A stretch of 48,634 nucleotides of DNA from a virus (taxonomy: Duplodnaviria > Caudoviricetes): the IMG/VR virus record IMGVR_UViG_3300035548_000645, positions 1-48,634 of that record; one strand, 5' to 3'. This document shows positions 1,918-38,496 of this stretch, in pieces. The notes beneath the pieces are model-generated. The model saw only the letters and a program-made list of their open reading frames with translations, was not told the origin of the DNA and did no database searches. The position numbers and the translations under genes were made by a program. Each line of letters begins with the position of its first letter. Position 1 is the first letter of the stretch.

Positions 1918-3717
1918 TTAACCACGGCCCATCCCCTCGCTGTCTATGGGCAACCCCATGCGGTGCGCCCTGAATCGTCTGTAGTTCTCCAACGCCTCGT
2001 CCTCATTGTAATATCTGTTCTTCCCTGACTTCTTGGCCGCATCGATGTAGATGCCCTGCTGCACCTTGTGACAGAAGCCGGACACCGCCTCTCCATACGC
2101 CTTGGCCAGGGCGGTGGAGGTGTACTCGCCGCCGGGCTCCAGCCCCAGCTCCTCGATGGTCACGTCCTCGACGAACCGGAACACCGGCTCCACGTCCATC
2201 TCCATGGGCAGCGCCATGCGCACCACGCCCTCGACCGTGACGTAGAACTTCGGCCGCAGCGCCTCCAGCAGCTCCCGCTGCTCGTCGTGCGACCAGAATG
2301 GAAATTCACTGAACGCCGCAGCCAGGTTCCTGGCGATATCTTCCTGGGCGTCCATGTCCAGGTCCTTGGCCTCCTGGGTCAGCACGCGGATCCGCGCCTC
2401 GATGCCGTCGGCCTCGCGTTGGATGTCCTCGACTTTGCGGTCGAGATCCGCCTTGTCGAAACTGCCGTCGATGTAGAGCGCCAGCACGCGCCGCTTCTTG
2501 GCAGCCGCCTTGTCGCGCCGTTCGAGCAGCCGGGCCATTTCGGCCTGCCGTCGCTCCACGCCGTTGCGCTGGCGGATGTTCTCGATCTGCTCCCGCAGAT
2601 ACTCCTCGCTGGCCAGCCTGGTGGCAATGAACCGCAGCAGCAGCTCCTCCAAGGGCGCCTTGCGGAATTGGGTCGGCGATTCGCAGACCAGCCCCTTCCG
2701 TATGCCCCAGCTCGTGTGCGCCCTGCACCTGTAGTAGCCAAGCCCCTGCTTGGGCTTCTCCCGGCCCCCGGTGTACATGGGATGCCCGCACACGCCGCAA
2801 CGCACCATGCCGGCGAAGAGGTAGCGATCGCCCACGCCGGACTGCCGTTGAACAAAGATATTCTTTTTGTTGAGGATGTGCGCCTGCACCCTCCAGAACA
2901 GCGCCTCGTCGATGAGCGGCTCGTCGAACACCTTGACCCGGATCACGTCCTCGGGCGCGCGCTTCACCCTGCGCCGCCCCGCCTGCCTCCCGTCCTGCCG
3001 CACATACCGCTCGCCGCGTTTATAGGTGTCGTACACCCGAAACCCGATGTAGATCTCGTTGGTCAGGAGGCCTTTGGTCTGCCGCCGCCCCAGGCCCAGC
3101 CGCCGCCCGATCTCCGTGTAGTTGTGGACCCCGCCGTCATAGAGCGCGAACGCCTCGGCCACCAGCTGGGCGTCTTCGGTATACGACCAGGTCCGCGTCT
3201 TCTTGTCGTAGGCCACGCCCATGGGCAGTATGTGCGCACCACCGGCATGCTCCCCGCGCCGGCGCATGGCCTCCTTGGCCTCCATGGACCGCTTGAGGAT
3301 CTGCCGCCGCTCGTTGCCGGCCATGAGCGACTGGATGCCGCCCATGAGGAATCCCGCCTGGCTGGCCAGGTCCACCACCTGGTCGGGCATGTAGATCCGC
3401 GCCCCGGTGTCCTGGATGTCCTGGAGCAGCCCGAACGATCTGAAGTCGTCCGCGCGCAACAGCCTGTCGAAATCGGCGACCACCAGACCTTTGGCCCGGC
3501 CGGAGCGGAGGAGCACGAGGATGGCGGCCATCTCGGGCGTGTTCGCCGCGCAGGTGCCGGACACGTCGACCAGCTCCACGTGGTCGACCACGACCAGCCC
3601 ATGGCGCTCTGCGGCCACCCTGCAGGCAGCCTGCTGCCGGGCCAGTCCGGCCTTGCCTTCCACGGCCTGCTCGGCCGTGGAGACGCGCAGGAACTCCACC
3701 ACCGGAATATCAGGCAT
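1918..3717 (-). CDS. int: Large serine recombinase (integrase), 599 aa
   Basis: Start MPDIPVVEFLRVST (catalytic Ser), DRLLR motif, recombinase domain, zinc ribbon CGVC...YYRC...C, coiled coil. The ORF-track start at 3834 is probably too long. Confidence 0.95.
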   Translation of the reverse strand: MPDIPVVEFLRVSTAEQAVEGKAGLARQQAACRVAAERHGLVVVDHVELVDVSGTCAANTPEMAAILVLLRSGRAKGLVVADFDRLLRADDFRSFGLLQDIQDTGARIYMPDQVVDLASQAGFLMGGIQSLMAGNERRQILKRSMEAKEAMRRRGEHAGGAHILPMGVAYDKKTRTWSYTEDAQLVAEAFALYDGGVHNYTEIGRRLGLGRRQTKGLLTNEIYIGFRVYDTYKRGERYVRQDGRQAGRRRVKRAPEDVIRVKVFDEPLIDEALFWRVQAHILNKKNIFVQRQSGVGDRYLFAGMVRCGVCGHPMYTGGREKPKQGLGYYRCRAHTSWGIRKGLVCESPTQFRKAPLEELLLRFIATRLASEEYLREQIENIRQRNGVERRQAEMARLLERRDKAAAKKRRVLALYIDGSFDKADLDRKVEDIQREADGIEARIRVLTQEAKDLDMDAQEDIARNLAAAFSEFPFWSHDEQRELLEALRPKFYVTVEGVVRMALPMEMDVEPVFRFVEDVTIEELGLEPGGEYTSTALAKAYGEAVSGFCHKVQQGIYIDAAKKSGKNRYYNEDEALENYRRFRAHRMGLPIDSEGMGRG

Positions 3718-3886
3718 CGTTGTCCTTGGGCAGGCCGCAGATCTCTCGGGCCAGGGCGATAGCCATGCGCTGATCCTTCTCCTCGAAGGCCTTGCGCATG
3801 GCGTCAATCTTCTCGCTCCGCTTCCGGGCCACACTCAGCGCCACGGCCGCCACGCTGCCCTGGGGATTCATTTCGGTATTTTCCAT
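3694..3886. repeat. Direct repeat copy 1 (about 193 bp): 58-aa gene plus first 8 integrase codons
   Basis: About 90% identical (about 19 mismatches by hand count) to 7812-8004, offset 4118 bp. Confidence 0.95.
3710..3886 (-). CDS. 58-aa protein overlapping the integrase start; candidate recombination directionality factor (copy 1)
   Basis: MENTEMNPQGSVAAVALSVARKRSEK...KDNDA with AGGAG RBS; its stop overlaps the int start (ATGCCTGA). RDF role inferred from position only. Confidence 0.7.
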   Translation of the reverse strand: MENTEMNPQGSVAAVALSVARKRSEKIDAMRKAFEEKDQRMAIALAREICGLPKDNDA

Positions 3887-3961
3887 GCCTATCTCCTTTT
3901 GTCGCAGTCCACGTGTTTCATTTCGCCATTCATTGATTTGACGGCCAACGTCCCGGGGAGA

Positions 3962-4342
3962 ATGACTCTGTGACAGACAGAGCAGATTTCGCACCCAGAC
4001 GGTTTTACCGTGCTGCTGGGCTGGCCCAGATCCGTCCAACGCGGTCCCGGCGGCGGCAGCCCGCGCGCGATCCTGACGCCGCGCCTTGCCGACTACCTCG
4101 CGGCCCATTGCCACGCCCCGGCCACCATCGACTTGCCCATAAGCCGAACCACCATCAAGCGACTGCGCAAGCTGCTCGGGCAGGATTGGACGCTGGACAA
4201 CGAGCAATGGTGGCACGACCACAAGGCCGACCTGCTGGCGTCCACGCTGGCCCAATTTTGTCAGCGCCATGGCAAAAGCCAGGGCGCGGCCAGCCAGTGG
4301 CGTGCGGTGTTTGGTGGCAAACGGTGCAGTCATAAGTCTTAG
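3962..4342 (+). pseudogene. Possible HTH-type protein with an in-frame TGA at codon 4, or an intact 110-aa gene from GTG 4010
   Basis: ATG ACT CTG TGA then an open frame QTEQISHPDGFTVLLGWP...; HTH-like segments (ISRTTIKRLRKLLG, FCQRHGKSQGAASQWR). Confidence 0.4.
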
Positions 4343-4400
4343 TCCTTATCGCCTTCGGAAATATTCTCAGTTATTGTGTGTGTCGCCAGCACGCACAAGG

Positions 4401-4631
4401 TCATTTGTGTGTGTTGGGATTATCAGTTTGTATTATCGCGTCGGACAGCATGACCGAATTGTCGATCTCATCAAGCCGAGCAATGCGTTTACCGAAAGAG
4501 GATTCCCATAGGTCAGACTGTGCCGTCAGTGATGTTTCTGCATCGCCATAATCTTCGGCCACAATGTACGCCGTTCGATTGTAGTGGGCGTAAGGTCCGG
4601 ACTCTAAAATGGCTTTGAATAATTTCATCAT
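4401..4631 (-). CDS. Hypothetical protein
   Basis: Small ORF in a tightly coupled lower-GC leftward operon. Confidence 0.6.
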   Translation of the reverse strand: MMKLFKAILESGPYAHYNRTAYIVAEDYGDAETSLTAQSDLWESSFGKRIARLDEIDNSVMLSDAIIQTDNPNTHK

Positions 4632-4813
4632 TCACCTTCTTCGGTTGTATTCTGCGACTTTTCCAACTCTGCCGCTTTTTCAGCTAATTCCTTTGCCATT
4701 TTAATGGCTTCCAGTTTCATTTTGTCCGTCACGTATGACCAGACCATGACGACTGAAAAAAGTAGAAACGCGAAACCCAAGAGGGCAATAAATTCGCACG
4801 TTGTATCACTCAT
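4628..4813 (-). CDS. Small membrane protein
   Basis: One hydrophobic helix; stop overlaps the next start. Confidence 0.6.
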   Translation of the reverse strand: MSDTTCEFIALLGFAFLLFSVVMVWSYVTDKMKLEAIKMAKELAEKAAELEKSQNTTEEGE

Positions 4814-4837
4814 TGGCTGCCTCGGCGGTATTCGTGG

Positions 4838-5074
4838 TTATTTGCCATTTCCGCGTCGTATCAGGTTCCGCGCAGCCCAGACTATGTAAACGACGAAAAG
4901 GCCGTGCAGGGGAGCCGTGATGCGCGAATCAACCCACTTGGTTTCAACCATGTGGACCCATCCGGCCTGTCCAATGTAATCCTGATAGAGTCCCATGAGG
5001 TTGCCATAGAGCATAGCCCCCAGGAGCATAGCCCACAGAACGGCCTTGGTTGGTGTATTTACTTTTTCAAACAT
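4838..5074 (-). CDS. Small membrane protein with two predicted TM helices
   Basis: Two hydrophobic segments. Confidence 0.6.
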   Translation of the reverse strand: MFEKVNTPTKAVLWAMLLGAMLYGNLMGLYQDYIGQAGWVHMVETKWVDSRITAPLHGLFVVYIVWAARNLIRRGNGK

Positions 5075-5095
5075 GGCTAAATCTCATGTGAGTGG

Positions 5096-5353
5096 TTAAT
5101 CCGGCATCTTGCACAGCGGATGGGCGGGGCCGGATCGCGTGGCCATCTCCATCACCTCATTTGCGTACTCTGTATCGTCCTGGGCGGCCGCATTTGCATA
5201 AGATACCAGCGCTGCCTGGGCGTACTTGTCCTTGAGCTTGATGACGAAAAATTCATCTTCTGGCGTGTCGCCGTGTTGTGTTTCTCCGGTCCGGTTGTTG
5301 ATAAGAGAATACTTGCCCTTGCCGTCGTCGTTGACATTCCTGTCCAACTTCAT
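5096..5353 (-). CDS. 85-aa phage protein, possibly an Acb4-like cyclic-nucleotide sponge
   Basis: AGGAG RBS; pattern KY.LIN..TG...FFVI..KD..A.AAL..YA. Family resemblance is from memory and unverified. Confidence 0.5.
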   Translation of the reverse strand: MKLDRNVNDDGKGKYSLINNRTGETQHGDTPEDEFFVIKLKDKYAQAALVSYANAAAQDDTEYANEVMEMATRSGPAHPLCKMPD

Positions 5354-5376
5354 GTTTATCTCCTTATGCTGAGTTC

Positions 5377-5619
5377 CTAGTCCAACTCGTCAACGCCCAT
5401 TGACGGCTTACGCAAATCGGCGGACTTAAATCGACTCTGGAAGGATGGACAGTCGGTAATGTCTTCTCCGTCGTCGTTACGGAACGCCGGACCATCAACG
5501 TCAATTTCCTGCCCTGTCTCACCACAGTACCCGCAGGGGATGATTCCCATAAGATAATCCTCGCGCTGTTCCCATTCGGGTTCATGGACGCACTGGTTGC
5601 ATCTGCTCATTTCTTTCAC
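5377..5619 (-). CDS. Small Cys-rich (CxxC...CxxC) protein
   Basis: CNQC and CGYC motifs; first gene of the leftward island operon. Confidence 0.6.
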   Translation of the reverse strand: MKEMSRCNQCVHEPEWEQREDYLMGIIPCGYCGETGQEIDVDGPAFRNDDGEDITDCPSFQSRFKSADLRKPSMGVDELD

Positions 5620-5660
5620 CTGTTTCCCTATTTTTTGACGTTTGTTTATAACTATACATT

Positions 5661-5676
5661 TTTATTACATAATAAA
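5661..5676. promoter_or_regulatory. AT-rich palindrome TTTATTA-CA-TAATAAA, operator-like
   Basis: Perfect 7-bp inverted repeat in the divergent intergenic region. Confidence 0.5.
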
Positions 5677-5700
5677 TCTGCAAAAAAACGAAATTACTTG

Positions 5701-5738
5701 TTGACTTTGACCCCGCTTGTCCCTATATTGAGGACAAG
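5701..5738 (+). promoter_or_regulatory. Sigma70 promoter TTGACT-17-TATATT with inverted repeat CTTGTCC/GGACAAG straddling the -10 box
   Basis: -35 at 5701-5706, -10 at 5724-5729, repeat arms at 5716-5722 and 5732-5738, AT-rich upstream region. Confidence 0.8.
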
Positions 5739-5785
5739 AACAACGCAGAAGGGCAACCGCTGCAAAAACATGGAGGGAAACCCCA

Positions 5786-6151
5786 ATGACCAACCCCACG
5801 CAAATCCCCAACAACACCATCCGCGAAGTAGCCTGGAACGCTGGCGTCCTGAAGCAGTTTACCATTCCCGGTTTTTTTGGTCTTGAACTGACCGGGACTG
5901 ACAAGCAAGTGGAGTTTACCGCGTCCGTCATCACCAAGTGGGCCGAAAAGCTCGACAGGGTTATGCCTGACTATCCCGCCGACGGCCTCGGCGAACTGCT
6001 TCGGGCTATGCCGCTGGATTGCTCTTGGTGGCTCGACAACCGCAAGTGGATATTGCATCAGACTCTACCGGGCACCCTGGAAATGGCGGCGAAGCAGGGA
6101 GTCATAGATATCCCGACCATCCAGGACATCATCACCCGTTACGGTATCTAG
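5786..6151 (+). CDS. Hypothetical protein (121 aa), anti-defence candidate
   Basis: GGAGG RBS; first gene after the operator-bearing promoter. Confidence 0.75.
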   Translation: MTNPTQIPNNTIREVAWNAGVLKQFTIPGFFGLELTGTDKQVEFTASVITKWAEKLDRVMPDYPADGLGELLRAMPLDCSWWLDNRKWILHQTLPGTLEMAAKQGVIDIPTIQDIITRYGI

Positions 6152-6158
6152 ACATAAC

Positions 6159-6182
6159 AGGGAGAGTCGAGAGGCTCTCCCT
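6159..6182 (+). other. Intergenic RNA hairpin with GAGA tetraloop
   Basis: AGGGAGAGTC-GAGA-GGCTCTCCCT; no strong U tract. Confidence 0.5.
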
Positions 6183-6229
6183 TAACCCGCCCGGAGGGAA
6201 ACCCCGGCAAACCAATGGAGGGAAACCCC

Positions 6230-6535
6230 ATGCACACGACCAAGTACAACAACATGATGGCAGCGTATGATGGATTTAAGGGCCACGTCACCGTGGCCGC
6301 CGTCCGTGCACAAATCCCGGACGAACTCACGGACCGCTTAACCGGCCATGAGCTGGGCCTCGTCATGAGCGCCATCAACTCGGCATACCACAATGGCAGG
6401 GCGTCTACCGGGGCCGAGGTCTACGACGCCAATCCGGTGGACGGGGCCGTCTGGATCAACGCCATCAACCGCTCCGTCGAGTGGCGGCAGATTGACGGCG
6501 ATCTCCAGTGCATCGCGCTCCCGGAACACCAATAA
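6230..6535 (+). CDS. Hypothetical protein (101 aa), anti-defence candidate
   Basis: GGAGGGAAACCCC RBS then ATG 6230; small, mildly acidic. Confidence 0.75.
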   Translation: MHTTKYNNMMAAYDGFKGHVTVAAVRAQIPDELTDRLTGHELGLVMSAINSAYHNGRASTGAEVYDANPVDGAVWINAINRSVEWRQIDGDLQCIALPEHQ

Positions 6536-6548
6536 CCTCGGAGACAAC

Positions 6549-7343
6549 ATGATCTACGACATCACGGCAGAGGAGGCGGCCCGCCGTATCCAGGTCCATG
6601 GCTCCACCTTGCGCGGGGCAATCCAGCGCGGGCTTTGTCAGGGCGAGGAGGTTGACGGCCACTGGTACACGTCGGAGGCCGCAGCAAGCGCCTGGAAGGC
6701 CTCACACTACCGCAAAGCCGACGCCGGGCTCCTGCTCTCCCCCACGGCCCATACCAAATGGACCGAAGGGGACCTTGAGAGGCTCCGCCGTCTCAAAACG
6801 GATGGGGCCAGCAATGCGGACATCGCCAAAGAGCTTGGCCGATCCGAGGCATCCATCAAGACCAAATGGAGCAAGATGGACAAGACTGGCCCGGCGGCCA
6901 CCAGGGATGATGCCCGCCAGAGGGTTGTCCGGGAGGCCAAGGCGGTCCTGTCGGCCAGCAAACCGGCCAAAGACCGGTATCAAGAGCGTCGGCAAATGGA
7001 GCGCGAGGGCCGCGTGCGCCTCCGCATGCACCCGGATGCCGTGGCGATCCTTGGGCGCGAGGCGCGCCGGCGCGGCGTCAAACTCGGTCGTTACCTCACC
7101 TTGGCCTATTGCGCGGCCATGGCCGATCCATCGCTCTTTGCCCTTGGACGGGCCGAGGCAGAGCAACAGGTGATCCGGACGCTTGAGTCCAGGGCGGACC
7201 GGTTGAGGATAGACCTCGATCCGGTCACCAAAACCATGATCCAATCCAGCGCCGAGGCACTGGGCGTCAGCCTGTCCAGGCTCATGACCGAAGCTGGCTT
7301 TGCCGTCTTGATCAGGCCCGACACCATCAACATAAGGACATAG
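6549..7343 (+). CDS. Multi-domain DNA-binding protein (winged HTH, Myb/GcrA-like HTH, two RHH-like units), 264 aa
   Basis: GGAG RBS then ATG 6549; segments ITAEEAARRIQVHGSTLR, WTEGDLERLRRL...ADIAKELGRS, VRLRMHPD...GVKLGRYL, LRIDLDP...GVSLSRLM. Confidence 0.7.
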   Translation: MIYDITAEEAARRIQVHGSTLRGAIQRGLCQGEEVDGHWYTSEAAASAWKASHYRKADAGLLLSPTAHTKWTEGDLERLRRLKTDGASNADIAKELGRSEASIKTKWSKMDKTGPAATRDDARQRVVREAKAVLSASKPAKDRYQERRQMEREGRVRLRMHPDAVAILGREARRRGVKLGRYLTLAYCAAMADPSLFALGRAEAEQQVIRTLESRADRLRIDLDPVTKTMIQSSAEALGVSLSRLMTEAGFAVLIRPDTINIRT

Positions 7344-7347
7344 TAGC

Positions 7348-7665
7348 ATGGCGATACCGCAACAGACACTGGCAACACTCCCGGGCGACGCTCCGGCAGC
7401 CGTCCGCGCACTCTACGCGGCTGGCGAATACCTGCACGGCGAACAGTGGCGCAGGCCGCTGGCCTATTCCCTGGGACCGTACTACCCGGATGGCCCGCGC
7501 GAGCGCATTGACCCTCGCCTGGTATCCAGATGGGCGGCCGGTCAACGCGATATACCCATGTGGGCATTGCGCGGCCTGCGCAAATTGCTGGAGAGCAAGT
7601 CCAATGACATAGCTCAAATCCTTGCGAAATTGGACGCCGTACCCGGCATCCAAGAAGGGGTCTAG
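7348..7665 (+). CDS. Small HTH protein, Aca-like regulator candidate
   Basis: HTH-type motif IDPRLVSRWAAGQRDIP; last protein gene of the operon. Confidence 0.65.
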   Translation: MAIPQQTLATLPGDAPAAVRALYAAGEYLHGEQWRRPLAYSLGPYYPDGPRERIDPRLVSRWAAGQRDIPMWALRGLRKLLESKSNDIAQILAKLDAVPGIQEGV

Positions 7666-7694
7666 TCAACAATCCTATGCAATTATCAGAGAGC

Positions 7695-7723
7695 TTGACG
7701 GCCAGGCCATGGCCGTATATCAG
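7695..7723 (+). promoter_or_regulatory. Possible promoter for the small RNA: TTGACG, weak -10 (TATATC or TATCAG), inverted repeat ACGGCCA/TGGCCGT in the spacer
   Basis: Near-consensus -35 at 7695-7700; palindrome 7698-7716; -10 imperfect. Confidence 0.45.
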
Positions 7724-7729
7724 GGACTT

Positions 7730-7802
7730 GTCGCATCACTGCGAGGATTGAAACACCCGTATGCTTTTTTCTTCAAGGCCGGTTAATCCCGGCCTTTTTT
7801 TT
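7730..7802 (+). ncRNA. Solitary type I-C CRISPR-repeat-like unit (GTCGCATCACTGCGAGGATTGAAAC, 7730-7754) plus 20 nt and terminator; candidate Racr/crRNA mimic
   Basis: 5' GTCGC, hairpin TCGCA/TGCGA and 3' GGATTGAAAC match the I-C repeat layout; single copy, intergenic, no cas genes in the window. Confidence 0.7.
7775..7802 (+). terminator. Rho-independent terminator
   Basis: AAGGCCGG-TTAATC-CCGGCCTT followed by a T run. Confidence 0.85.
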
Positions 7803-7811
7803 CGCATGTCG

Positions 7812-8004
7812 CTCCACCACAGGAATCTCAGGCATCGTTGTCCTTGGGCAGTCCGCAGATCTCGCGCGCCAGGGCCAGGGCCAGGCGCTGGTCCTTCTTC
7901 TCGAAGGCCTTGCGCATGGCGTGTATCTTCTCGCTCCGCTTGCGGGCCACGCTCAGCGCCACGGCAGCCACGCTGCCCTTGGGGTTCATCTCGGTATTTT
8001 CCAT
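7812..8004. repeat. Direct repeat copy 2, ending in an integrase stub MPEIPVVE
   Basis: Matches 3694-3886; similarity stops after integrase codon 8. Confidence 0.95.
7828..8004 (-). CDS. 58-aa protein, paralogue of 3710-3886 (candidate RDF copy 2)
   Basis: MENTEMNPKGSVAAVALSVARKRSEKIHAMRKAFEKKDQRLALALAREICGLPKDNDA, GGAGG RBS; absent from the ORF track. Confidence 0.8.
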   Translation of the reverse strand: MENTEMNPKGSVAAVALSVARKRSEKIHAMRKAFEKKDQRLALALAREICGLPKDNDA

Positions 8005-35698: not shown

Positions 35699-36982
35699 CT
35701 AGAATTTGGACATCCGCTCGATGGCGGCGGCACGCTGCTCTTCCTTGGTGGGGGCGGACTGGCCGCCCGGAGCGACGTCTTTCTGGTCGGCCTGCTTGAG
35801 CCCGTCCAGAATGGCCTGGCGGGATGCCTTGTCGCCGGCGTCCGCGTCGGCAGCGGCGTCATTGCCGCTGTTGTCCTGGCCGTCCTGGGCGGGAGTCATC
35901 GCCTTGGCGATTGCCGTGGCCTGGGCGATTCCGGAATCCGCCTTGAGCACGGGTTCCATCTTGGCCTTGGCCTCATCGCCAAGGACCACGCCGACCAAGG
36001 CCAGGGCTTCATCCGTGGCCTTGGTGGTGGCCTCGGTCACTGCGGTGGCCTTTTCCTTGTCCGCTTTTTCGAGCGCGGCCTTTTCGGTCGAACTCACGAT
36101 TTCCTGCACAGCCTCGGGATGGTCATTGCGGAGCTGTGCTGCCGTTTTAGTCATGGCGTCCTCCTTTAGGGATGCTATGAGTTCCTGCCGGGTCTTGATG
36201 CCATGCACCAGCCCCAGCTCCTGACCGACGGATGCACGGAAAAACTGGCCGTCCGCCCATGCGGAGACCTCTCCCATGTCCAGCCCGAGGTATCGGGCCA
36301 CGTCGGAGGTGAAGATGTCGTAGGCCTGGTCCAGGCGCTCCTGGAAATAGGCCTTGTCGTCCTTGGAAAGTGGTTCGTCGGGGTTTCCGGCCGCCTTGCG
36401 GCTGCCCGCGTGGAGCCATGTCGGGTTGATGCCCCACTGCTCGTTGAACTTCGAGAAGTCCAGGTGCAGCTGTATGACGCCGATGGAACCCACCAGAGTC
36501 ATGGGGCTGACGGCATACACGCTGTCCGCTGCGGAGCCGATGTACTGAGCCGCGCTGGTCATCCCGCCGTTGGCCAGGGCCGCAACGGGCTTGACGCCCC
36601 GGACCGAGTGGATGAACTCGGCCAGCTCGCGGCAGCCGTCCACGGTCCCACCGGGCGAATCGATGTCCAGGATCACGGCGTCCACCGAAGAGTCGTCAAG
36701 GACTTCCTCCAGGGTGGCCCGGACCGCCTCGTAGGAGGAGACCTCGAACCCGCGCGGGGTGGAGATGGGCCGCTTGATCAACGGTCCGAAGACGTCGATC
36801 ACGGAAATGTTGTCGTAGTCGTGCCTCGGGGCGGTCGTCTGCGGTGCGTCCCACTCCATGCCGAAAAATTGGGAGCCGCCGTCCGGGCCTTGCTTGGCAC
36901 CGTTCATGAAGCGGACCAGGGTTTCCATCCCGGCGTCCGAGATGAACCAGGGCTTGCCCAAGAGGGATATCCAGTCGTTCAT
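35699..36982 (-). CDS. S49 family prohead protease with C-terminal scaffold (lambda gpC/Nu3-like)
   Basis: LDIDSPGG, SAAQYIGS, VGSIGV; probable internal start MTKTAAQL with AGGAGG RBS near 36154. Confidence 0.92.
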   Translation of the reverse strand: MNDWISLLGKPWFISDAGMETLVRFMNGAKQGPDGGSQFFGMEWDAPQTTAPRHDYDNISVIDVFGPLIKRPISTPRGFEVSSYEAVRATLEEVLDDSSVDAVILDIDSPGGTVDGCRELAEFIHSVRGVKPVAALANGGMTSAAQYIGSAADSVYAVSPMTLVGSIGVIQLHLDFSKFNEQWGINPTWLHAGSRKAAGNPDEPLSKDDKAYFQERLDQAYDIFTSDVARYLGLDMGEVSAWADGQFFRASVGQELGLVHGIKTRQELIASLKEDAMTKTAAQLRNDHPEAVQEIVSSTEKAALEKADKEKATAVTEATTKATDEALALVGVVLGDEAKAKMEPVLKADSGIAQATAIAKAMTPAQDGQDNSGNDAAADADAGDKASRQAILDGLKQADQKDVAPGGQSAPTKEEQRAAAIERMSKF

Positions 36983-38496
36983 GTCGCTTTCTCCTCCTCA
37001 GCGAGGCCGAGTTCCAGGTCCCGCCTGCGCTCGGCCGCGCGGATCTCGGCCACTTCTTGGCCGTCGCCGCCCTGTTCGGCCACCACGTCGGCGTGGGTCA
37101 TGATGTTGGCTTCCATGCCCCTGATGGAGGCCACGATCTCCTTGACGGGATCGATATAGCCCCGGGCGGGACCGATCCAGCGGGTGCCGAGATAGGCGTG
37201 CTGGGCGTCGTAGAAATCCGGAGCGCCTGCCGGGAGCGTCCAGAGGCCGCGCAGGAACGCCTCCTCCTGGACCATGGCCCAGTTGATCTGGCAGAAGTGG
37301 GCACCGGCCCAGGAGCGGTAGATCAGGTAGACCCGCCACGCTTCGAGCAGGGCGGCCCTGGCGCTGGAGTAGTTGGTCTGCGAGAAGTCCTTGGCCAGGA
37401 CCTCGTAGGGCATGCCCGTGGCCGCGGCCATGGCGCGCAGGACCAGGCGGGCGAATGCCTCGAAATTGTTGCCCGGATGATTCGATTCCAGAATGAACGG
37501 CTTTTCGTTCGGCGACCCGTACAGGATGGAGCCCGGCGCATAGTTCTTGTGGTACGCCGGGTTGGGGTTGCCGTCTTCGTCGTAGGGTTCGGGGGCGGTG
37601 TAAGCCCCGGCAGCGGCCGCCGCGTTGGGGTCCTGCGAGGCGATGAACACCGGGATGGACGCGGCCATGATCTGGCCGATGAGGCTGTAGTCGAACGAGT
37701 CGTCCAGGAGCCGGTAGAACTTCATGGCCGGAGACAGGACGCTGCGACCCCGGTACTGCTCCTCGCGGGTAAGGCGGAACCCGTGCAGCATGCCGGGCCG
37801 GTGCCCCTTCCTGGCCGGAATCCGCGAATAGCTGGAGCTGGAACGCAGCTCGCCGCCGTCGAACCGGCTGGGGTTGCTCACCCAGTAGGCTATCGGGCGG
37901 CCGTCGTCGTTGACCTCCACGCCGTCGATGACGTTGTCCCTGTCGAAGAACTCGAACGGGGTGGACAGCCGCGACGGGTGAATGTCCTGCAGGGCATAGG
38001 AGAACGTGCGCTCCGGATACGTCTTTTCGTCGAGCATCCGGGGCAGAAAGAGGAATTCGCCCTTGGTCAGCACGGAGTGCAGGGCGAGGAACTGCAGATC
38101 GTTGAAGGTGGCCAGCCCTCGGGAGTGGGCCTCGGTGTTCCAAATCTTCCAGACGCGCTCCATGCTCTCCTGGAGTTCGTTCGCCTGGTCTTCGGTCAAC
38201 CCAAGGGCCTTGCGGTCGACCCGCGCCTGCGGCTTGAGGCCCGGCCCGACCACGTTGACCGTCATGGAATCGATGACGGACGCGGCGTTCGGGTTGTTGT
38301 CTACGAGGTCTTCGGCGCGGCGGGCGATGACTTCACGCTCGCGCGCCTCGCCGTCCTGGGTGGTTCGCGGCGAGTGCCAGTTCGACATCGTGCCCCGGAA
38401 GGTCCCGGCGGCGGAACGGACCCGGCCAAGGCCTCGCGGCTTGACGGTCCTGCGGCGGGCGGCGGCCTGGGATCGGGCGGAAGGAAAACCGGTCAT
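36979..38496 (-). CDS. Portal protein (lambda gpB family)
   Basis: RAEDL..NNP, GVE....GRP.AYW, NYSSARAALLE, YIDPVKE. Confidence 0.95.
   Translation of the reverse strand: MTGFPSARSQAAARRRTVKPRGLGRVRSAAGTFRGTMSNWHSPRTTQDGEAREREVIARRAEDLVDNNPNAASVIDSMTVNVVGPGLKPQARVDRKALGLTEDQANELQESMERVWKIWNTEAHSRGLATFNDLQFLALHSVLTKGEFLFLPRMLDEKTYPERTFSYALQDIHPSRLSTPFEFFDRDNVIDGVEVNDDGRPIAYWVSNPSRFDGGELRSSSSYSRIPARKGHRPGMLHGFRLTREEQYRGRSVLSPAMKFYRLLDDSFDYSLIGQIMAASIPVFIASQDPNAAAAAGAYTAPEPYDEDGNPNPAYHKNYAPGSILYGSPNEKPFILESNHPGNNFEAFARLVLRAMAAATGMPYEVLAKDFSQTNYSSARAALLEAWRVYLIYRSWAGAHFCQINWAMVQEEAFLRGLWTLPAGAPDFYDAQHAYLGTRWIGPARGYIDPVKEIVASIRGMEANIMTHADVVAEQGGDGQEVAEIRAAERRRDLELGLAEEEKAT

Follow-up and report, generated by a model that had tools for sequence, protein, structure and literature searches.

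The window, i.e. the whole stretch of 48,634 nucleotides that was analysed, represents a provirus of about 76% completeness whose head and tail genes are of the lambda type and which also encodes a serine recombinase. The best named matches of the flanking gene at 1-1755 are found in Pseudodesulfovibrio (72-83%), and from these matches the host is taken to be a member of the Desulfovibrionaceae, probably a Pseudodesulfovibrio-like one. Plasmids of Nitratidesulfovibrio vulgaris (N. vulgaris), a representative of this family, carry type I-C CRISPR systems. The flanking gene itself encodes a T7-type head-tail connector (PF12236). It occurs as a conserved gene on Pseudodesulfovibrio chromosomes and has no relationship to the lambda-type portal (36979-38496) of the prophage. 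Searches for relatives of the provirus through its integrase or through a duplicated 58-aa protein returned none.

The feature under study lies near the right end of an accessory island (3887-7811) with a GC content of 56.4% versus 63.3%, which is located between two 193-nt direct repeats (3694-3886 and 7812-8004; 90% identical in DNA), each coding for the 58-aa protein. The duplicated gene thus flanks a 4.1-kb low-GC island, as if the island had entered, or can leave, by recombination, and its left copy overlaps the start of the recombinase gene. An operon on the plus strand occupies 5701..7343 plus 7348..7665 of the island, and a repeat-guide unit closes it. The operon promoter (5701-5729) carries a 7-bp inverted repeat around its -10 element (5716-5722/5732-5738), and we take this arrangement across 5716-5738 to be like an Aca operator. 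Four genes follow on the same strand, namely a small gene without an assigned family (5786-6151), a second small gene for a 106-aa protein (6215-6535), a gene for a helix-turn-helix protein (6549-7343) and, directly upstream of the unit, a gene for a 105-aa helix-turn-helix-like protein (7348..7665). The 106-aa product has 18 database matches, one of them its own cluster, and a conserved helical core, but no family or fold match, and by position only it is a candidate anti-defence protein. The structure neighbours of the 105-aa protein (Atlas) belong to HTH/Cro-C1 and Aca2/YdiL-like clusters with TM scores of 0.60-0.73, all below the bar for naming, and Foldseek returned nothing from the PDB at E<=0.001, so that this protein is Aca-like by position and fold class only. 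Small genes combined with helix-turn-helix genes form a layout that resembles acr-aca loci. The surroundings of the unit are anti-defence-like, but no gene of the operon matched a named Acr or Aca.

In front of the repeat lies a TTGACG box (7695-7700) that, together with a weak -10 element (7716-7723), forms a candidate promoter (7695..7723, plus strand). Two -10 candidates were read from the sequence, TATCAG with a 17-nt spacer and TATATC with a 15-nt spacer, each agreeing with the consensus at four of six positions, and the 17-nt spacing would put the transcription start near 7730. This promoter was absent from the list produced by the promoter scan. A 6-bp inverted repeat (CGGCCA/TGGCCG, 7699-7715) lies between the -35 and -10 elements and is a possible operator, and the twelve bases from the operon -10 onward resemble positions 7716-7727, just before the repeat, at nine of twelve positions. 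The shortened type I-C repeat of 25 nt (7730..7754, plus strand) consists of a hairpin of 4-5 bp and a predicted 11-nt 5' handle (7744-7754), the first base of which, an A in place of T, is able to pair into the stem. When compared with the 32-nt I-C repeat of N. vulgaris, its first five bases and 13 of its last 14 bases are identical. The stability of the repeat hairpin is ordinary by itself (z -1.42), and an I-C-like motif occurred in none of 300 Markov-simulated windows. The repeat is followed by a 20-nt guide (7755..7774, plus strand), whose reading frame spells T-R-M-L-F-S-S and which fits the coding strand of cas3 behind a TTC PAM, and then by an intrinsic terminator (7775..7802, on the plus strand only) with a hairpin at 7775-7796 (8-bp stem, 6-nt loop) and a T-run to 7802. 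The scan gave eight terminator-like sites where shuffles give 5.1, so the terminator of the unit is not significant alone. Contigs of two runs, which are oil-field metagenomes and may be the source of the record, carry this stretch without any difference.

Much of this anatomy had been recognized in the preliminary description, and the single intergenic unit with its 20 nt and terminator, the TTGACG box with its palindrome and the assignment to a shortened I-C repeat all stand. The same holds for its statement that the window contains neither a second repeat nor cas genes: no further repeat unit occurs elsewhere in the window, no Cas Pfam match was found among the 37 larger open reading frames, and a Cas5 search of the whole record was empty. 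Rfam at the gathering threshold gave nothing in the window. What had been missed is that the 20 nt after the repeat would serve as a guide, a reading that the sequence comparisons support. A TTC-flanked partial target of 7755-7774, as that description had proposed to look for, was indeed located, inside type I-C cas3.

This site emerged from a scan of the JGI metagenomes with TTC followed by guide positions 1-16, positions 6 and 12 being left free, in which 56 of 64 parts were scanned. At least 120 matches were obtained (about 140 estimated). Among the 120 matches listed, thirteen fall within type I-C cas3, and every one of them sits at one and the same motif, F-T-R-M-L-F-S-x-L-[VI]-D-[AS]-D, in which the Asp is presumably a metal ligand of the Cas3 nuclease. 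They account for 11 of the 97 distinct clusters among the matches listed, and any other shared protein family was represented by at most two. Guide position 17 also fits in all thirteen cas3 matches, although it was outside the search pattern. The guide differs from them at position 6 (12/13), at positions 12 and 18 (13/13 each) and beyond. The TTC PAM is the Phe codon of the motif, and positions 6, 12 and 18 are the third (wobble) bases of the Arg, Leu and Ser codons. Within Cascade, one guide base in six stays unpaired, and since these positions fall on wobble bases, a single guide would still fit host strains that differ by synonymous changes. The target lies at cas3 codon 173 and onward (N. 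vulgaris numbering), about 520 nt after the start codon. In the protein, the motif follows the region matched by the Pfam HD family (39-121), precedes the helicase match, which begins at 257, and aligns with the solved I-C Cas3 chains 8ZNS and 8G9U. A 7-base seed run next to TTC, TTA or TTT occurs nowhere in the window itself, and a PAM-flanked self-target there is thereby rejected. Contigs of four runs (X1-X4) align piecewise at 80-90% with a cas3-cas5c locus (L305), some of them spanning the target site, and in one X1 contig the depth equals that of the prophage contig (10.2); depth being no measure of copy number, neither observation was given weight.

A library of seventeen I-C loci, picked by Cas homology and not by the guide (138,243 bases, 5,517 TTC sites), was used for null tests; two of these loci, the N. 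vulgaris locus and L112, had been scanned with the guide once beforehand. At a TTC site the guide matched with at most one mismatch in 15 in two loci, with at most two in three loci and with at most three in six loci, one of the six not being traced to the motif, and none of the seventeen independent loci matched at 15/15. The counts at two and three mismatches were reached by none of 19,446 20-mers from the window and none of 5,000 shuffles, and by one and two, respectively, of 150,000 random guides, while the guide score was reached by none of 141 real spacers. Only 39 of the 5,517 library TTC sites are as conserved as the cas3 target. In N. vulgaris the cas3 site consists of TTC and a match of 14/20, with mismatches at seed position 3 and at position 15. 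Of the sixteen loci in which the motif was located, only five have TTC in front of it, and the fit of the guide is thus limited to a subset of I-C systems. As far as sequence can tell, the assignment of the guide to cas3 is strongly supported. A repeat-like hairpin, degenerate and lacking the GATTGAAAC end, was also observed upstream of N. vulgaris cas3 (L122, 12930-13000).

The feature is real. The reading that we favour, with a probability of roughly 0.6, is that a crRNA-like RNA guides the host Cascade onto cas3 as a transcription roadblock, silencing being its most likely function. The unit would be transcribed from its own promoter or from that of the operon, and Cas5c is predicted to cut the transcript at 7743/7744, leaving the 11-nt handle on an RNA of about 42-59 nt. 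In the available text of bioRxiv 2024.12.27.630466, one-repeat I-C crlRNAs likewise receive their 11-nt handle through Cas5c cleavage and have a hairpin at the 3' end, and the Nezha crlRNA mismatches its target at position 6. The processed RNA would then load into a short Cascade, for which the PAM of the D. vulgaris I-C complex is TTC according to the accessible part of bioRxiv 2022.06.15.496202. I-C Cas3 contacts form only with a full R-loop of about 35 nt, as stated in the portion available of bioRxiv 2023.08.05.552134, so an R-loop of 17-20 bp should be too short for Cas3 recruitment and should give binding without cleavage. The guide reads in the same sense as the mRNA and would pair with the template strand, with the PAM facing the oncoming polymerase, which would reach the PAM side first and stall about 520 nt inside cas3. 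Cas3 would fall as a consequence, and Cascade as well if the genes are co-transcribed. In addition, the RNA of the unit may compete with immune crRNAs and consume Cascade, and such titration probably happens as well, as reported for CracrVA1.

For I-E Cascade, about 5-fold silencing was obtained with full-length guides against the template strand of an ORF, an effect weaker than that of targeting a promoter (PMC4288158, as excerpted), whereas in the part of PMC4288209 available only non-template targeting was effective in the transcribed region, so the strand rule for ORF silencing is disputed between these two sources. RNA polymerase coming from the PAM side is stopped by dCas9 as well as by dCas12a (PMC9758054, in the text at hand). 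By analogy a roadblock is plausible rather than established, and polymerase may push a 20-nt R-loop off, which counts against it. More tentatively, and at slightly less than even odds, the guide may have been built by the phage with no host regulatory RNA to copy, with a Phe codon as the PAM, the unpaired positions on wobble bases and a near-invariant Cas3 motif as the target. In that case a single gene of 75 nt would silence the nuclease in many strains of the host, whose only ways out would be the few synonymous changes left (the Phe PAM codon, Thr at guide position 3 and Phe at 15) or an altered Cas3. The D. vulgaris type I-C Cascade, from the presumed host family, has already been reconstituted, which makes the prediction sharp and cheaply testable.

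Among the described RNA-based systems, the unit would work most like a Cracr. As far as the accessible text of bioRxiv 2024.10.29.618823 goes, Cracrs are likewise viral and have a PAM-flanked partial target in a cas locus and a guide of about 20 nt (17-21 nt in I-F Cracrs), CracrVA1 likewise combines a single repeat, a short guide and a terminator, and I-C candidates are listed; the 219 candidates tabulated there may include a similar case. The present unit is located on a mobile element outside any CRISPR-Cas locus (a provirus in which no cas gene was found), combines a repeat-like unit, a short guide and a terminator, and has a TTC-flanked partial target in cas3 of the same subtype, I-C. The difference lies in the target. 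Cracrs mimic host CreR/CreA, are aimed at promoters and were discovered by likeness to those RNAs, as that source presents them, whereas the recurrent target found here is not a cas or creT promoter and lies within the cas3 ORF from codon 173 onward; the unit is hence filed as a Cracr variant and not as a member. No host CreR/CreA counterpart, with which a Cracr guide has at least 9 PAM-proximal bases in common, was found for it with one exact pattern in the GTDB species genomes, a pattern that a degenerate handle would escape and that returned only two array spacers. The I-C crlRNAs that control Nezha, Gabija and CRISIS likewise possess one repeat, an 11-nt handle, a 3' hairpin and a TTC PAM, and their match of about 16 bp with a mismatch at position 6 recalls the guide of the unit; in the excerpt available (bioRxiv 10.1101/2024.12.27.630466), however, they are host-encoded inside cas operons and promoter-directed, whereas the unit is phage-encoded and aimed at a nuclease gene. 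Viral mini-arrays against related viruses are likewise phage guides that use the host effector; in the portion of the review at hand, which covers decoys and anti-virus mini-arrays (PMC11656645), their repeats are identical to those of the host and their targets are other viruses, in contrast to one shortened repeat with a target in cas3. Regulatory mini-arrays of viruses are promoter-directed in the available text of bioRxiv 2023.03.03.530964. The literature searches, with most subscription papers and the Cracr candidate table outside their coverage, found no published viral guide inside a cas ORF. If the favoured reading is true, phages can silence CRISPR immunity by natural CRISPR interference within a cas gene, a route that adds to the imitation of promoter regulators of the host and to the sequestration of Cas proteins. 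Searches based on CreR/CreA similarity or on promoter targets would overlook such guides, so viral solitary repeats merit rescreening against cas coding sequences.

A pure RNA decoy is the rival that survives best, and we regard it as unlikely. The unit would then act as a Racr that sequesters Cas5c/Cas7c, and the cas3 match would be a trace of its origin from a repeat and a self-acquired spacer in a host array. Viral solitary repeats do act as Racrs, RacrIC1 beside acrIC5 among them, and the unit resembles them as a solitary intergenic repeat in a provirus, without cas genes and behind small accessory genes (PMC10651486, in the part accessible); the repeat of the unit was absent from the nine text files of its supplement. 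Units of this kind are also common. A first scan of IMG/VR gave 111 I-C repeat loci, 110 of them solitary and mostly from one phage lineage, and a second gave at least 120 further loci (about 180 estimated), among which were 98 distinct units, 84 of them solitary. A short solitary I-C repeat is by itself ordinary, not rare, and most viral solitary units have no target found: 105 other viral guides were compared with 26 loci, and none matched at a conserved cas site, six having isolated matches. Acquisition at a TTC-flanked site would moreover account for the PAM and the register, as a spacer once acquired from cas3 would show both without any function. Against this, 15 of 15 non-wobble positions within 1-17 still fit real cas3 alleles despite the loss of 7 nt from the repeat and the trimming of the spacer to 20 nt, and only a few of the library TTC sites (39 of 5,517) are this conserved. 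The mismatches sit at wobble positions, which in matches chosen on positions 1-16 suggests selection on pairing. Racrs are described, in that same excerpt, as sequestering Cas proteins and not as guiding them, whereas the unit has a target in silico. A decoy needs no target, so a cas3 match beyond chance makes the pure decoy less favoured. Of the two functions envisaged in the preliminary description, a Racr decoy or a short regulatory guide, the second is thus strengthened, and the first is less supported as the sole function.

A guide that provokes cleavage or primed acquisition in the cas locus of the host, so that lysogens would lose or damage cas3 and not silence it, appears improbable. 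The target is a conserved essential motif with the correct PAM, but a cut chromosome is usually lethal to the lysogen. In type I systems an imperfect target can suffice to prime acquisition (PMC10651486, as available), while the guide of 20 nt falls short of the R-loop of about 35 nt needed to recruit I-C Cas3 (bioRxiv 2023.08.05.552134, in the same portion). A real target in a promoter of the host or of another phage, as for a classical Cracr or an inter-phage guide, with the cas3 match being secondary, is about as improbable. The described Cracrs are aimed at cas or creT promoters (bioRxiv 2024.10.29.618823, in the accessible text), the guide contains the -10-like hexamer TATGCT, a few non-cas matches at 17-19/20 occur among the matches listed (L327, L264 and L272), and the provirus is only partly complete. 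These matches are, however, unrelated single clusters, about one of which is expected by chance among 120 (an estimate), the window offers no PAM-flanked seed site, and the GTDB species genomes gave no host-type repeat with the guide. Least probable of all is a non-functional relic of a captured repeat-spacer unit, in keeping with the single occurrence, the weak -10 and four capsid-related viral records that lack such a repeat (11-41% complete, and thus possibly not covering the region), since handle, hairpin and terminator are intact, in register with a guide of Cracr length and at the end of an accessory operon.

The exact repeat has no match in IMG/VR, and no second viral unit with the same guide was found in this collection, from which near relatives may be missing: the handle with the guide returned only four unrelated array spacers, and its relaxed forms returned none in one case and, in the other, 64 matches with none behind a repeat. 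A blastn search of 7690-7810 against phages and plasmids gave only chance matches at the level of the terminator. A strict terminator finder was positive for only 4 of the 84 other viral solitary units, and -35-like hexamers 30-40 nt upstream showed only a loose enrichment in 85 units; a fixed architecture of the class is accordingly not claimed.

The lineage that dominates the first scan (L001-L111, with L148 and L149) comprises about 100 records with an I-C repeat of 25-27 nt, the first 20 nt being conserved and the 3' part occurring in two alternative forms, and we take it to be Bacteroidales-like from its promoter motif. No target was found for it in two Bacteroidales I-C loci, and the idea that the common viral guide of the Bacteroidales type is aimed at cas7 was not supported. 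In five other viral loci (L161, L193, L196, L241 and L254) a sequence located 19-36 nt upstream, with TTC or TTT in front of it, recurs in the guide. Such upstream copies were found for 5 of 95 distinct solitary I-C repeats against 0.3 expected from shuffles, and they represent either repeats inserted at a protospacer with duplication or guides directed at their own promoter.
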